Of a DNA stretch of 64,000 nt, positions 6,471-57,537 are shown one piece after another. The position numbers and the translations under genes are program-made. Numbering within the stretch: the stretch's first letter is position 1; each line of letters starts with the position of its first letter. The stretch covers positions 210,676,001 through 210,740,000 of the forward strand of contig OX597814.1 in NCBI GenBank assembly GCA_951406725.2, written 5' to 3'. The notes below the pieces were generated by a model. It was not told the DNA's origin, searched no databases, and worked only from the letters and a program-made list of their open reading frames with translations. This DNA is from Octopus vulgaris. Its lineage: Eukaryota.

Positions 6471-6490
6471 CTATATATATATATATATAT

Positions 6491-6680
6491 AGTTAATCCA
6501 AACATGAAAACACAAAGAGAAAACACAACAACGCGAGGACGTGGAACAAATATAGTATTATTGGACGCTCAGGAAAGAAGGAAAGAAGGAGGGTTTAACG
6601 TTTCGAGCGGAGCTCTTCGTTGGAAACATAGGAGAAGGGAAGACAGAGGGAAAAAATTGCCAACGGTACACATGCGGTCA
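6491..6680 (-). mobile_element. Short hammerhead-bearing repeat (probable Penelope-like pLTR fragment), between (TA)n and (CA)n
   Basis: Homologous to 51606-51800 and 57003-57160. Minus strand 6627-6593 reads GTTT-CCAACGA-A-GAGC-TCC-GCTC-GAAA-CG-TT-AAAC. Confidence 0.75.
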
Positions 6681-6704
6681 AACACACACACACACTCACA
6701 CACA

Positions 6705-9603: not shown

Positions 9604-9694
9604 TTGTGTGTGTGTGTTTGTGTGTGTATGTATATATGTATGTATATCATATATATATATATATATAGCAATTCATGTACATTTTTTTATTCTT

Positions 9695-9926
9695 TTAATC
9701 TTTTGGTTGTTTTAGTCATTTCATTGCAGCCATGCCGGGGCAAAAGCTTGAAGTAGCTTTTTATTTATCGAAGTAATCAAACACAAGACACATCTGTTTT
9801 AAGCCTAGTAATTATTCTATCGGTCCATGTTGCCTAACCACTGTGTTACGGGGACGTAAACACACCAACGCTGATTGTGAAGTTGTGATGGGAGAACGAT
9901 ACAGCCACAAAAACGCACACACACTC

Positions 9927-33733: not shown

Positions 33734-34137
33734 GACTGTGTGGTAAGTAGCTTGCTTACCAACCACATGGTTCCTGGTTCCTTTCCACTGCGTGGCAGCG
33801 TAGGTAATTGTCTTCTACTATAGCCACGGGCCGACCAAAGCCTTGTGAGTGGATTTGGTAGACGGAAACTGAAAGAAGCCCGTCGTTTATATGTATGTAT
33901 ATATATATATATGTATGTTTTTATATGTTTGTGTGTCTTTCTTTGTCCCACCAACATCACTTGACAACGGATGGTGATGTGTTTACGTCCCCGTAACTTA
34001 GCGGTTCGGCAAAAAAGATCGATAGAATAAGTACTAAATGTCCAAAGAATAAGTCCTGGGGTCGATTTGTTCGGCCAAAGGCGGTGTTCCAGCATGGCTG
34101 CAGTCAAATGAGTGAAACAAGTAAAAGAGTAAAGAGT
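33734..34137 (+). mobile_element. Group A SINE, near full length
   Basis: CTGTGTGGTAAGTAGCTTGCTTACCAACCACATGG...GGATTTGGTAGACGGAAACTGAAAGAAGCC, internal microsatellite, tail GGCGGTGTTCCAGCATGGCTGCAGTCAAATGAGTGAAACAAGTAAAAG. Confidence 0.92.
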
Positions 34138-34831: not shown

Positions 34832-35537
34832 ATATAATTGCATATAATGCTTCGAAAACTGTCTGTGAATTCATTTACCTCTCCTTCACCCTAAATTTGT
34901 CAAGGCATTCTTTTCGCTGATCTAACTGCATTACTTAACATTCCTACTTTTGCTAGAGAACAGAACTATTTCAGTAGCGTGAGAATAAAACTAACTAGGA
35001 AATAATTAATATTTTCCTCATTTCCATTCTCTCTAAATCAGAATTAATCGTCAGGACGCAGCATTACTTTTTCTCCCAGTGCATACTTTCTTTTTGTTTT
35101 ACTTTTTTCTACTTTGTCGAGCATTTTGGCTTTTAATTTCCTTGCAAATGTTATTATTACTTTTTTTTCGATAATTCGCTTTTCAGAAGAAACATTCATC
35201 AGGGATATAGAGAAAGAAAAAAGTTTTTCTTCTACTTTTCTTTATTTTTTCAAGGAAAATATACAAAAGCCTTAATTAAATGCTTCGAGGTTGTGTCACA
35301 ACGCGCGAAATACATTATCATCGAGTGAAATACCAATATTTCTTCTTTAGAATTTTAGTAGTAAAGAGTGGTGTTAGTATGACCTTTTGGGGAAATATCG
35401 GATGTTTTCAAAGATAAACAGCGGAAACAGAAGTGCACGCACACATGTACAAAGAAAGTACTACATGTATGCACACACATATATTATATAGTGATTATAT
35501 ATGTAAATGTGTGTGCGTTTGAGTGTTTGTATATATA

Positions 35538-36691
35538 CGAGGGACGTTCAATAAGTAATGCCTCTGACCCACTTGCAGTTGTTTGATCTAGGTGTTTGAA
35601 CCGAGTCAAGTGTGAAATGGAGCCTGTTGAGTGTCGAGCAGTGATCCGGTTTTTGTATTTGAAAGGACGCACATCACGGGAGACTTTTGATGAAATGAAA
35701 GTAACTTATGGTGATGATGCCCCATCATATGACCTTGTAAAACGCTGGCATCGTGAATTCAAACATGGTCGGAACTCTGTGGAAACAGCTCCCAGATCTG
35801 GTCGCCCCCTTCTGCCATTGATGAGGCATCTGTCCATCAAGTTGTGGCTGCCATTTTGGAAGATCGACGCATAATTATTCGCCAAATAGCCCATGAGGTC
35901 AAGATTAGTACCGGGTCTGTGGAAACTAACATTCATGACCATTTGCATATGCAAAAGGTGTCTGCCAGATGGATTCCCAGGTTGCTCACGCCTTTCCAGA
36001 AGCAAGAGCGCGTCGAGTGCTCGAGGGTGAATTTGGAGATGTGCCAAGAAGATGAGTCAACATTTTTCAAAAGACTGATTACACACGATGATCCAGAGAC
36101 CAAAGCCCAGTCAATGCAGTGGAAGCACCGTGACTCACCCCCTCCAAAGAAGGTAAGGGTGCAGCCCTCAGCTGGCAAGGTCATGCTCACAGTCTTCTGG
36201 GACCAGGACGGAGTAGTGATGACAGATTTCCTGGCAAAGGGTACCACAATTGCAGGAGCCTATTATGCTTCACTTTTGAGGAAATTAAGAGAAGTTATCA
36301 AAATCAAGAGGCGGGGCAAGATCAGCAAAGGCATCCTCCTCCTGCAGGACAACGATCCGGTCCACAACTCGCGTGTCGCCAGATCATCCCCCCTACTTTC
36401 TTGACCCTGCACCCTCTGATTTTCACCTCTTCCCAATCATGAAGTTGTTTTTGAAAGGAAAGCGAAAGCGTTTCCCAGATGATGCAGCCTTGATTTCTGA
36501 AGTCACGTTGAGGTTGGAGGACCAAGCTGGGTTCTTCTACAAAAACGGTCTCCAGAGCCGCATCAAACGATGGGAGAAATGCGTAACTCTGGGTGGTTCC
36601 TATGTAGAAAAAGACTAATAACTGTGCCAAGTTTCGTTGCTCTACTTCTATGGGAAGTGGGTCAGGGGCATTACTTATTGAACGCCCCTCG
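35538..36691 (+). mobile_element. Mariner (DD34D-type) DNA transposon, near full length, non-autonomous
   Basis: 37-bp TIRs CGAGGG[A/G]CGTTCAATAAGTAATGCC[T/C]CTGACCCACTT with 2 mismatches; TA dinucleotide on both sides (35536-35537, 36692-36693). Confidence 0.95.
35617..36618 (+). pseudogene. Mariner transposase pseudogene
   Basis: Three frameshifted segments: MEPVECRAVIRF (HTH); WIPRLL, KVMLTVFWD, LLQDN; HPPYFLDPAPSDFHLF...RWEKCVTLGGSYVEKD*. The first catalytic-D segment (ITGDETW) is partly deleted, and there is a second deletion before HPPY. Confidence 0.92.
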
Positions 36692-36784
36692 TATATATAT
36701 ATATAGAGAGAGTTCACTCAAAAAGGCGTGTAAAATACATACTGTAATTATTTCTAATTGATCGCAAAAGCAAATAAACACTAT

Positions 36785-51605: not shown

Positions 51606-51800
51606 GGTCCACTCAATATGTGACCACGTGGCGATTTTTTTCTCCGTCTTCTCTTCCTTTTCCTATGTTTCTGACGAAAAGCTCCGCTCGAAACGTTGAA
51701 AATCCTCATTCTTTCTTTCCTTTTCCGAGCGTCCAATAACACTATACTTGTTCCACGTCCTCCGTTGTTGTGTGTTCTCTTTGTGTTTTCCTCTTTGTTC
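51606..51800 (+). mobile_element. Short hammerhead-bearing repeat (probable Penelope-like pLTR fragment) after (TA)n
   Basis: 51667-51701 reads GTTT-CTGACGA-A-AAGC-TCC-GCTC-GAAA-CG-TT-GAAA with a canonical core; homologous to the 6491 and 57003 copies. Confidence 0.8.
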
Positions 51801-52383: not shown

Positions 52384-52607
52384 TGTATGTATGTGTGTGT
52401 GTGTTTGTGTGTCTGTGTTTGTCCCCCTAGCATTGCTTGACAACCGATGCTGGTGTGGTTTACGTCCCCGTCACTTAGCGGTTCGGCCAAAACAGACCGA
52501 TAGAATAAGTACTGGGCTTACAAAGAATAAGTCTCGGTGTCGATTTGCTCGACTAAAGGCGGTGCTCCCGCATGGCCGCAGTCAAATGATTGAAACAAGT
52601 AAAAGGG
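52153..52607 (+). mobile_element. Group A SINE, full length
   Basis: Head GGCGTAGGAGTGGCTGTATAGTAAG...GGGTTCAGTCCC, internal (TA)n(TG)n, CR1-like tail; possible low-complexity TSD TAAATATA at 52145-52152 and 52608-52615. Confidence 0.93.
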
Positions 52608-53046
52608 TAAATATATACAAATTAATTATATAATAATATATGTAATTATTTGAATAAATTATATAATAATTAAAGACAATTTTCAAAACGCAATACCCAT
52701 ATATGTAAATGATAATTCTCAATGTACCGGTCACACGCCGCAATGATTCAAGTCAAAGCGTGAATAGAGATAAATAAATAGATGGAGTCATTTTCTGTTG
52801 GAAACGTCATATTCAAAATCATTATGTATTATACAAATGTTTTCTAAGCAAGTTATGGCCTTTCAAAAAACAATTACTTCTGAGATAAGAGCAAAGCTGC
52901 AAATACTGTGACGTACATGGTTACAACTGATTTCCACAAAGTAGTGAGAGTTCTTGTATCCTTCTAATTATGTATCTGAAGAATCAAACACACCTACGCA
53001 CATGCATAAAAGCATACATACATACATACACATATACAAACATATG

Positions 53047-53713: not shown

Positions 53714-54020
<307 letters not shown>

Positions 54021-54099: not shown

Positions 54100-55552
54100 G
54101 TGATAAAAATTCAAAATTATAGAAATCTAAACGTAGTGTATGAACGAGAGCAACCAGTGTCCACACGTTGATAGAATGTCATGATCAGTTTTTAAGTTTC
54201 AATTTTATAAAAGGCGAAAAAAAGACAGTAAAACAAAGAAATAGAAGACAACAGGAGAAAAAAAAAGAAAAAAGAGTAAAAGTAGAATATTTAATCAAAG
54301 ACTTTTGTTTAAATTTGATGGTATTCTCCTGCTATATTATTCATTCCTCCAGGACGTATATATTAATAACCCGCAAACATATTTCTTCTCATACAGTCTG
54401 AGTGAAGCAGATTCAGAATATTTTCTGAGAATATGCACTTTCAAGTCTTCTTCAAAATTGCAGCCGCTTGAAACGAAATGTTCAGCAAGTTCTGTCGAAC
54501 TACGGATATTGTGCCTGACGTCGAATCTGTGCCCATTAAACCTTTTGTTTAATTGTTCCGTTGCTCAACCCAACATCAATCAAATTCTGTTTCCTACATT
54601 CTGCAGCGCACACCAAATGGAAATCTCGACATGTCCCACCTCCTGTATAAATCATAACATTTCTGTTATGATTCCTGGTGGAATTCACTTCATTCACGTT
54701 GTTGTACAATGAACAGGGCTTACCTCTCTTGTGACTGTTCTTCAAAGTACAGCCTGCAGATACACCAATGTTCGTTTTATTGGAGTCAGAAAGAGAGGTC
54801 AGCAATTCTCTTATATTCTTATTCCGTCTAAATGGTACAATAGGCGGCTGAGGAAATATCTGTTTGAAACGGGGATATATTTTTGCCACATGCTGGTAAC
54901 ATTCATGCAACGCTTTCGAAATGCCAGCGAAATGTCGGTGCCAGTTAATCACTAAAGGAATTCTGTCATCCATTTATTGTATGGTGTTTGTTAAAATTAT
55001 GCGTGAAGGTTAGACTATCTTTGCTAATCCTAGCTATTTCATTTGCTATTTCCTTTAATCGTGATTCACTGTAACCGCATTTGGCACAATGATATACAAA
55101 AGCATTTGCATCGTTTCAGTAATCCTCTATGTCAGTACAAATCCGTTTTATCCTGAAAAGTTGGGATTTCGGATTTGACCAAATGAGATGATGTGGATGA
55201 TCGGAGCGGCTGTGGAGATAAATGTGGGATGACGTGGGCTTGGAAAATAACACTTTAGTGTTCAAAAATTCAACGCAGGTTTTTGAAAAGCTCGACGTAA
55301 ATTTTATGTTTGACTTAAAGCCATAGTTTCTAGCATAACCGTCACAAAAATGCAAGAAGTCCATTAAACTATCGTGTTATTCTTCCAAGATAAAAAAAAA
55401 AATGCGTCATCAATGAACCGTAACCAGGAGGGATTTGAATGTCTTCAGTAACTCAGTCTCGAATTTCAAAATTGCAGCTGCTTGAAACGAATTGTTCAGC
55501 AAGTTCTCTCGAACTAGTGTTATTGTGCTTGACGGCGAATCTGTGTGCGTTA
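54100..55552 (-). mobile_element. Decayed Penelope-like retroelement (RT C-half plus GIY-YIG endonuclease) with upstream partial tandem repeat
   Basis: WLRFIDD (RFIDD at 55420-55406), FLNT...KPT...YLH..S.HP.H...PKSQLFRIKRIC, RIPLV...PPIVPFRRNKNIRELL, and a GIY-YIG-like segment TC...LVCAAEC...IDVG...FNGHR...LAEHF. An 88-bp repeat lies at 54451-54538 and 55465-55552. Confidence 0.88.
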
Positions 55553-55555
55553 CTC

Positions 55556-55733
55556 TGTCGATGTTGGTGTGTTTATGTCCTCGAAACGTATCTGTTCGGC
55601 AAATGGAACCGATTGATTGAGTATTCGGCTTACAAAGAATAAGTTCCTGGGTCGATTTCTTCAACTAAAACCGTATAGGGTGATGCCCCTTAATGACCGT
55701 TCTCAAATGACTGACACGTGTAAAAGAAAGAAA

Positions 55734-55736
<3 letters not shown>
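55556..55736 (+). mobile_element. Group A SINE, 3' part
   Basis: GATGTTGGTGTGTTTATGTCC...GTTCGGCAAA...CTTACAAAGAATAAGTTCCTGGGTCGATTT...CAAATGACTGA. Confidence 0.8.
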
Positions 55737-55787
<51 letters not shown>

Positions 55788-55791
<4 letters not shown>

Positions 55792-55996
55792 CGATGCAGC
55801 ACGGATTTTTGTCAGTGAACATGTCGCAGTCTTAAAGCGACGAAAATATTTTGACAAATTAAACTTAAATGTTGAAGTGAATCGAACGGCTTTTGTGTGT
55901 TTCCTAAATGGCGTACAAACACCTTCAACGCTGCGATTGCTTTCGTTTCAGCGCACGATCTCAGATCAAATCACTTGCTATGCAAGTACATCTCCG

Positions 55997-55998
<2 letters not shown>
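55788..55998 (+). mobile_element. About 210-bp insert inside a (TA)n array carrying a hammerhead fold
   Basis: Complex sequence flanked on both sides by (TA)n; contains the motif at 55808-55858. Confidence 0.75.
55808..55858 (+). ncRNA. Putative minimal type I hammerhead ribozyme, G3-C8 core variant
   Basis: Stem I TTTGTCA/TGACAAA (7 bp); core GTGAACA (55815-55821); 1-nt bulge; stem II GTCGC/GCGAC; GAA; palindromic stem III AATATT (55845-55850); predicted cleavage after U55851. Confidence 0.7.
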
Positions 55999-56067
<69 letters not shown>

Positions 56068-57005: not shown

Positions 57006-57160
57006 GTGACCTTTCAAAATGTGACCTTTCAAAGTGTGACCTCGTGCGTACCGTTCGCGATTTTTTTCCCTCTGTCTTCCCTTCTCTGGATCTTTCCTTC
57101 TCCTATGTTTCCGACGAAGAGCTCCGCTCGAAACGATAGACCCTCCTTCTTTCCTTCTTT
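57003..57160 (+). mobile_element. Short hammerhead-bearing repeat between two (TA)n arrays
   Basis: 57107-57141 reads GTTT-CCGACGA-A-GAGC-TCC-GCTC-GAAA-CG-AT-AGAC; the 5' end carries a 15-bp tandem repeat (TGTGACCTTTCAAA[A/G]). Confidence 0.78.
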
Positions 57161-57165
57161 ATATA

Positions 57166-57215
<50 letters not shown>

Positions 57216-57231
57216 CATATATGTATGTATG

Positions 57232-57459
57232 TATATATGTCTGTGTCTTTTTGCTTGTGTTTGTCCCCACGTCACAGCTTGACAACCGGTGTTGCTGTGT
57301 TTACGCACCTGTAACTTAGTGGTTCGGATAAATAGACCGGTAGAATTAGGACTAGTCTTTACAAAAAAAAACAAACAAAAGTCATAGGGTCAATTTGTTC
57401 GACTAGAGATGGTGCTCCAGCATGCCCGCAGTCGAACGACTGAAACAAGTAAAAGAATA
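57232..57459 (+). mobile_element. Group A SINE, 3' half
   Basis: GTGTTTGTCCCC...GCTTGACAACCG...GTAACTTAGTGGTTCGG...GGTGCTCCAGCATGCCCGCAGTCGAACGACTGAAACAAGTAAAAG. Confidence 0.88.
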
Positions 57460-57537
57460 TAGGAATATATACTAATATGGCTTAGAGTTGTAATTCGTAT
57501 TACGTTTGTTTAATCTTTTAATCTATAGCTCCAATTT

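Follow-up and report, generated by a model that had tools for sequence, protein, structure and literature searches.

A putative minimal type I hammerhead with a swapped 3–8 core pair in an abundant repeat of Octopus vulgaris

Textbooks show the C3–G8 pair as a contact in the active hammerhead, and its swap to G3–C8 has served as a laboratory proof of that contact. A 51-mer from Octopus vulgaris has the layout of a hammerhead and carries G at position 3 and C at position 8, which raises two questions: whether it is a natural hammerhead with a swapped core pair, and what kind of element has spread it. The 51-mer occupies 55808–55858 of the window, by which we mean the whole 64,000-nt stretch of O. 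vulgaris DNA that was analysed and in which all positions given here are counted.

The motif and the repeat that carries it

The letters and pairings listed for this stretch by the original prediction were borne out by re-reading the sequence and by an independent descriptor scan. The parts of the motif are as follows.

55808–55814, plus strand: 5' strand of stem I, with seven Watson–Crick pairs to 55852–55858 (pair probabilities 0.65–0.96 in the whole-unit fold)
55815–55821, plus strand: core positions 3–9, G3-U4-G5-A6-A7-C8-A9, with G3 at 55815 and C8 at 55820, from the sequence and the family letters
55822, plus strand: unpaired base between positions 9 and 10.1, U here (a private change) and G in the family
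55823–55841, plus strand: stem II of 5 bp (55823–55827 with 55837–55841), with closing pair G10.1–C11.1, and its 9-nt loop II (55828–55836); pair probability 0.99
55842–55851, plus strand: G12-A13-A14 (55842–55844), self-complementary 6-nt stem III (55845–55850) and U17 (55851), from the sequence, with the predicted cut after 55851
55852–55858, plus strand: 3' strand of stem I, pairing with 55808–55814, from the descriptor scan

The canonical core C3-U-G-A-N-G8-A is absent, as both this copy and the family have G3 and C8, which are themselves Watson–Crick complementary. U4, G5, A6, A9, G12, A13, A14, A15.1, U16.1 and H17 are all in place. The motif also has three features described for the minimal hammerheads of Penelope-like elements (PLEs), namely a base between positions 9 and 10.1 (55822), a G10.1–C11.1 pair (55823/55841) and a palindrome made up of 15.2–16.2 and loop 3 (55845–55850), all of them beyond what those authors' own search descriptor required (Cervera and de la Pena 2014, PMC4209133); this supports the likeness to PLE minimal hammerheads noted at the outset. 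Under the same descriptor the motif is the only match in the window to either a canonical or a swapped core, and no hammerhead model in Rfam matched at E ≤ 10, either in 14 kb or in the 209-bp unit. The fold had been called otherwise perfect; in this copy it is not, for the predicted minimum-energy structure pairs G3 with U17 and 55822 with G12.

In the stretch noted at 55806–55816 and 55820–55824, the letters leading up to G3 resemble a 3' splice site, with a pyrimidine run followed by CAG, and an initiator-like TCAGT word overlaps the letters around G3; both resemblances are to general consensus patterns. No splice joint at the G3 site occurs among the 15 of 30 contig joints listed. The 5' end of helix I marks the end of an intron in Drosophila Penelope (PMC4209133).

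The motif lies within a repeat unit set between simple-sequence tracts.

55736–55788, no strand assigned: (TA)26 tract on the left flank, adjoining the 3' end of a SINE-like repeat
55787–55798, no strand assigned: left arm of an imperfect terminal inverted match, with its right arm at 55987–55998 (8 of 12 letters)
55793–55998, plus strand: high-copy repeat of about 205 bp carrying the motif, from contig matches and pile-ups of loose contig ends; one copy in the window
55999–56062, no strand assigned: (TA)15 followed by (TG)17 on the right flank

Read by eye one base further out, the inverted match between the termini rises to 9 of 12 letters. The window as a whole is AT-rich eukaryotic DNA, rich in microsatellites and repeat fragments, and in it blastn found no second copy of the unit, nor is there a tandem one.

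Parts of the unit are present in 21 of the 24 contig runs listed (best share 0.47 of 17 words). Family tables were taken from four of the 24 runs, which bear three organism labels, with contigs matched at 80 per cent likeness. Matching contigs number 12501 among 52.2 million records (run X1, of which about 76 per cent was read), 8791 among 35.8 million, 6120 among 28.3 million and 451 among 0.64 million, figures that count contigs and not copies. The repeat family is very abundant. Loose contig ends pile up at 55793/55794 and at 55995, beyond which the flanks are AT-rich and agree poorly (0.41–0.46), and these positions are therefore taken as the approximate ends of the unit; a further cluster of loose ends, at 55807, suggests a subfamily whose linker differs. 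The present copy departs from the family majority at 12 of 203 positions. Searches of metagenome and genome contigs with a 17-base pattern returned 120 or more matches each, all of them chance (240 loci compared; best alignments of 17–37 bases), whereas longer unit patterns had no match in genome contigs and none in viral contigs.

Run X20, a marine metatranscriptome with a share of 0.18, is outside the family tables. That run X8 consists of RNA is a guess, and contigs show neither strand nor ends, so that this run does not count as evidence of transcription. Among the 24 of 644 loose-end rows listed, 5' ends do not accumulate at the cut site; these rows derive from contigs and as such cannot show RNA ends.

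Several smaller items were seen inside the unit. A small hairpin lies near its right end (55979–55995 region), no family variant is listed across 55957–55995, and a short frame from an ATG at 55908 stays open through the unit end (55908–55998) and has no family match. A 69-codon plus-strand frame has no homologue and is open here but stopped in 44–73 per cent of family depth in the three large runs; it is therefore not treated as a gene. For a 52-codon minus-strand frame none of five candidates scored, and two short plus-strand frames had only chance matches in Pfam (E = 0.12–0.14).

Chance expectation and the state of the family

To gauge the motif against chance, we used an order-3 Markov model trained on the window minus its microsatellites. 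Across 100 Mb of simulated sequence, no match had a stem I of at least 7 bp together with a stem II of at least 5 bp; two had a stem I of at least 6 bp with a stem II of at least 5 bp, and relaxed matches totalled 44. When one further core mismatch was allowed, 3 Mb of simulated sequence gave 14 matches, one of them with equally long stems. Analytically, Watson–Crick stems of this length with any 3–8 pair are expected about 3e-6 times per window, and the chance of the core letters given both stems is about 4e-6. The folding z-score of the 51-mer on its own is modest (−2.06; 10 of 200 shuffles fold equally well). In its combination of stems and core letters the motif is far beyond chance.

The swap is not a one-off of this copy: the GTGAACA core is common to the family in all four runs. 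G3 and C8 can be regarded as the family state because no other letter reaches 4 per cent anywhere in 55815–55821 in any of the four runs; the same holds for 55808–55821, 55843–55853 and 55855–55858, with the reservation that variant detection may weaken toward the unit ends, where a CpG at 55802–55803 is likewise without a variant row. Position 55822, by contrast with the private U of this copy, is G in 96.5–98.6 per cent of family depth. A subfamily (11–18 per cent of depth) has G at 55854, which preserves a U·G pair.

With CpG transitions and private changes excluded from the counts, polymorphic sites are concentrated in loop II (3 of 9 sites) relative to the stems and core (1 of 42; Fisher P = 0.015), a hint of structural constraint among the source elements. 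The stems and core do not differ significantly from the rest of the unit (1 of 42 versus 8 of 152 sites; P = 0.69). Stem II shows CpG decay only (3–7 per cent in the three large runs), and G12 reads A, also through CpG decay, in 2–3 per cent of depth in those runs and in 9.7 per cent in run X8. Taken together, CpG transitions in stem II and at G12 reach 2–7 per cent in the three large runs, irrespective of whether a pair survives them, and CpGs outside the fold behave alike; in run X1, those that break stem II or G12 stand at 3–5 per cent versus 5–6.5 per cent for those that keep a wobble. Individual copies decay neutrally.

Covarying stems had been named as a further sign to look for, and they were not found: the stems yielded one U·G wobble variant and no compensatory double change in tables that are compiled per site and not from full copies. 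No family with C3–G8 was seen among the matched contigs of the four runs, and the unswapped relative that would prove covariation is therefore missing. Fixation in the consensus shows only that the copies descend from one source element; any selection therefore acted there and not on the present copy.

Origin of the swap and predicted cutting

Covariation at the 3–8 pair has natural precedent in U3–A8 (Schistosoma Cercyon, PMC4209133; Perreault et al., PMC3088659). In the Poseidon PLE of Anolis carolinensis, C3G or G8C alone abolishes cleavage, whereas a mutant with both changes regains part of it (Frangieh et al. 2024, PMC11167929), and the same rescue is given in a review (PMC8495972). The Poseidon mutants bear out the premise of the original prediction that single changes at 3 or 8 are deleterious and that the double swap rescues cleavage in part. 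In the literature covered, which consisted mostly of open papers, we found natural U3–A8 and engineered G3–C8 and no natural G3–C8.

Drift away from a hammerhead would strike exactly positions 3 and 8, and leave complementary letters there, in about 0.4–0.6 per cent of cases. Selection in the source lineage, we infer, preserved the pair. The swap had been put forward as pointing to selection for self-cleavage; the drift estimate agrees with this, whereas fixation across the family attests only to descent from a single source element. The motif is likely a new natural core variant of the minimal type I hammerhead, inherited from the source element and putatively a weak cutter. Standard searches built on CUGANGA would miss it.

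The closest counterparts are the minimal type I hammerheads in the pseudo-LTRs of PLEs, which share with the motif the type I layout, the base between 9 and 10.1, the G10.1–C11.1 pair and a palindromic stem III that needs a dimer (PMC4209133). PLE hammerheads and the unit are also alike in occurring as many dispersed single copies, and covariation is known at the very same pair (PMC4209133). They differ in that the motif has G3–C8, two transversions away, where known PLE hammerheads have C3–G8 or U3–A8, and in that its stem I is 7 bp long versus 4–5 bp in the Schistosoma families and its stem II 5 bp versus 7–8 bp (PMC4209133). The Poseidon double mutant C3G/G8C, which is partly active, has the same core pair as the motif; Poseidon and the unit further resemble each other in their AT-rich insertion sites and in the distance from the hammerhead region to the element end (110–150 nt in Poseidon, 140 nt here). 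In Poseidon, however, the swap was engineered in the laboratory, and a full ORF begins within the hammerhead, whereas in the unit the swap is natural and no link to an ORF was found (PMC11167929).

Folding predictions bear on how well such a sequence might cut. In both this copy and the family majority, G3 is predicted to pair with U17 (probability 0.63–0.67), extending stem I across the cut site, and in this copy the private U55822 is predicted to pair with the catalytic G12 (probability 0.75–0.77). The hammerhead-compatible share of the predicted monomer ensemble is 0.5–0.9 per cent for this copy and 2.7–4.5 per cent for the family majority. These figures from ViennaRNA describe the monomer only, given that stem III of the active dimer crosses stem I; the energy of the stem III self-duplex, computed separately, is predicted to be only −0.2 kcal/mol. 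The G3·U17 pairing mirrors a C3–G17 trap discussed for hammerheads, and the same source reports that a G3–C8 hammerhead variant performs better with G17 than with C17 (PMC3884650). Even when dimeric, PLE hammerheads cut slowly (PMC4209133; PMC6765202), and the Anolis Poseidon ribozyme cuts only with protein present (PMC11167929). We expect that the source sequence would cut weakly, in a dimer- or protein-dependent manner, and that this copy would cut little; the folding models predict less activity for it than for the family source.

The nature of the element

With moderate confidence, we interpret the unit as a non-autonomous PLE derivative of the solo pseudo-LTR type, and its G3–C8 motif as a true minimal type I hammerhead that was swapped in the source element and kept. 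On this interpretation, the 3–8 pair would have been swapped in a PLE source element and then retained; a PLE reverse transcriptase would act in trans on the plus-strand RNA, and the copies would enter AT-rich or (TA)n sites. The 6-nt palindrome would join two motifs, or folding would be helped by a protein; with G3 paired to C8, cleavage of the RNA after U55851 would proceed slowly. Genomic copies, this one included, would afterwards decay without selection. The fuller proposition, that this very abundant lineage repeat is a PLE-driven retroelement with a working natural G3–C8 hammerhead, we advance only tentatively.

Insertions of PLEs often have an inverted, 5'-truncated copy beside the 5' end and favour microsatellites (PMC8557442), and PLEs make up 6.83 per cent of the O. 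vulgaris assembly (PMC13282606). Among the 15 of 30 contig joints listed for the unit, six join opposite strands and nine are internal skips. All six opposite-strand joints start at the left end (55793–55803) and lead to 55841, 55850, 55865, 55867, 55936 and 55954; judged by the lengths of their sides, they would have a head-to-head geometry. The left-end inverted joints and the (TA)n targets fit the PLE insertion pattern, although joints of this kind could also result from nested insertion. Of the 20 joints with extra letters between their sides, 12 are listed, and they include none of the six; as far as the rows listed go, an intact terminal repeat is therefore not indicated there.

A link to a PLE ORF did not emerge: translations of the unit matched nothing in protein searches, the unit and a neighbouring PLE remnant did not match each other by blastn, seven short unit motifs had no match in the published supplement with the Octopus Naiad PLE consensus, where line breaks could hide one (PMC8557442), and the unit had no sequence match in the supplement of PMC13282606.

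The window also holds other repeats. Another family, bearing a minimal hammerhead of the PLE type, lies at 57030–57170 (plus strand), 6490–6690 (minus strand) and 51620–51800 (plus strand). The majority sequence of its three copies has a CUGA/CCGA-type core, the extra base, a 4-nt palindrome and U17; two of the three copies have C at position 4, and each copy has at least one disabling change. Like the unit, this family combines U17 with a microsatellite setting, and we count it toward the PLE interpretation on that account.

The neighbouring PLE remnant, at 54337–55545 on the minus strand, is broken and 5'-truncated, and it found nothing in Pfam or in a protein search. Within it we recognize what we take to be the C-terminal and thumb motifs of a reverse transcriptase near 55119–55420, a Cys-rich linker at 54536–54973 and a GIY-YIG-like end at 54337–54564. 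Atlas look-alikes of the remnant, at 0.90–0.91, carry HTH_animal and GIY-YIG. An 81-bp piece of its endonuclease region (54451–54531) is repeated at 55465–55545 with 90 per cent identity. Behind the remnant, at about 54130–54200 on the minus strand, a possible decayed minimal hammerhead was noticed by eye; it has C at both positions 3 and 8, an extra base, nearly a 4-bp stem II, a near-palindromic stem III and no clear stem I.

Three further repeats complete the surroundings. Five copies of a SINE-like repeat (55546–55735, 52425–52620, 33950–34135, 57270–57465 and, on the minus strand, 9630–9880) have a common 3' part with a purine-rich tail, and the copy at 55546–55735 ends in the (TA)26 tract that flanks the unit. 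A Mariner-type remnant at 35530–36699 contains a Transposase_1 match (35757–36401; E = 5.5e-24) and is bounded by 45-bp inverted repeats (35530–35574 and 36655–36699; 95.6 per cent). A trinucleotide array of 300 bp, with about 101 copies of a TTA-type unit, spans 53715–54019.

A MITE is a short, non-coding, high-copy, non-autonomous DNA transposon with terminal inverted repeats. The unit might be one, with short degenerate terminal repeats and a preference for TA-rich sites, in which case the hammerhead-like stretch would be a passenger (a captured PLE fragment or a nested DNA palindrome) that never needed RNA cutting. We regard this as unlikely, though deserving of attention, for the unit shares with MITEs its short length of about 205 bp, the lack of any coding role found, a very high copy number, two sharp ends, AT-rich targets and a partial terminal inverted match. 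Length, non-coding character and copy number are nonetheless common to solo fragments of PLEs as well. The terminal match of 8–9 of 12 letters (for 9 of 12, binomial P is about 8e-4, uncorrected for the choice of register and the shared TA tract) is echoed in the loose-end consensus before 55793, which is partly like the inverted right end, and in a nested joint from 55890 to 55793 (run X5), which has four extra letters of the same likeness. This terminal repeat is imperfect, however, and seemingly absent at the inverted joints, the six at the left end appearing to lack extra terminal letters; a MITE could still account for them as nested insertions. Loose-end agreement is just 0.41–0.46, the left end of the family is heterogeneous, and no fixed target duplication can be read, though (TA)n flanks would hide one. 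The indifference of CpG decay to structure agrees with a passenger hairpin, but a hairpin alone leaves the core letters (about 4e-6 given the stems) unexplained, and cut-and-paste transposition makes no use of an RNA catalytic core.

Two other classes of DNA transposon were considered and set aside. A Kolobok-type MITE with TTAA targets was dropped, as the joint letters show no TTAA duplication, and a Crypton is unsupported; animal Cryptons are reported to lack terminal repeats (PMC3212892).

To return to a PLE origin, the hammerhead may have descended from such an element yet have been dead already in the source, with C3G and G8C both arising by drift, or one of them fixed for another reason such as the splice-acceptor- or initiator-like word at G3, and the family may have spread without cleavage. 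That letters through G3 read like a 3' splice site, by the general consensus, suits this account, as do the G3·U17 pairing and the weak stem III, both predicted to lower activity. Cutting by the Anolis PLE hammerhead is dispensable for insertion in vitro and no reads ended at its cut site (PMC11167929), and Naiad PLEs thrive without canonical hammerheads (PMC8557442). Against it stand the rarity with which drift would leave complementary changes at 3 and 8 (the 0.4–0.6 per cent given above) and the integrity of all other core letters and of 12 stem pairs in the family majority, and we consider a relic that was inactive from the start improbable.

A further reading, which we hold to be very improbable, makes the unit one of the dispersed monomers of a non-LTR retrozyme that multiplies through tandem transcripts and circular RNA. 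Such retrozymes are likewise short non-coding mobile units with a type I hammerhead, and probably PLE-dependent (PMC7229834; bioRxiv 10.64898/2026.07.22.740005); the unit falls in their size class of 150–450 bp (PMC7229834), solo monomers occur, an origin from PLE pseudo-LTRs has been proposed (bioRxiv 10.64898/2026.07.22.740005), and the predicted fold allows the unit's ends to pair with each other. Retrozymes, however, form tandem arrays with canonical hammerheads and circular RNA, whereas the unit is apparently dispersed and has a minimal, swapped core (PMC7229834; bioRxiv 10.64898/2026.07.22.740005). The hammerhead is of the minimal PLE type, the window has no tandem copy, the unit ends are fixed and lie away from the cut site, and no end-to-start joint is among the 15 of 30 listed, although contigs may break at such joints.

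Pure coincidence, in which random letters mimic a hammerhead, is scarcely credible: over the roughly 250,000 windows of the scan, this stringency would be expected to yield about 0.7 chance matches, and a looser one about 120, and Rfam offers no hammerhead match, but the G10.1–C11.1 pair and the 6-nt palindrome push the estimate lower still, and the motif sits in a mobile repeat of a genome in which other repeats carry the same type of hammerhead.

What sets this motif apart is that the 3–8 pair is swapped throughout the family of a very abundant animal repeat while every other core letter is intact. Should the unit prove to be a MITE instead, it would still be a DNA transposon carrying an intact ribozyme fold. 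A natural, family-wide swap, if true, would mean that evolution can cross the inactive state of a single change and keep the pair. Censuses that fix the CUGANGA core would then undercount animal ribozymes. If the element is PLE-driven and its hammerhead works, such searches would overlook thousands of ribozyme copies in each genome, and swapped cores might be present in some of the PLE groups that have been described as having no hammerhead. The swapped family would also provide a direct test case for whether PLE hammerheads need to cut.
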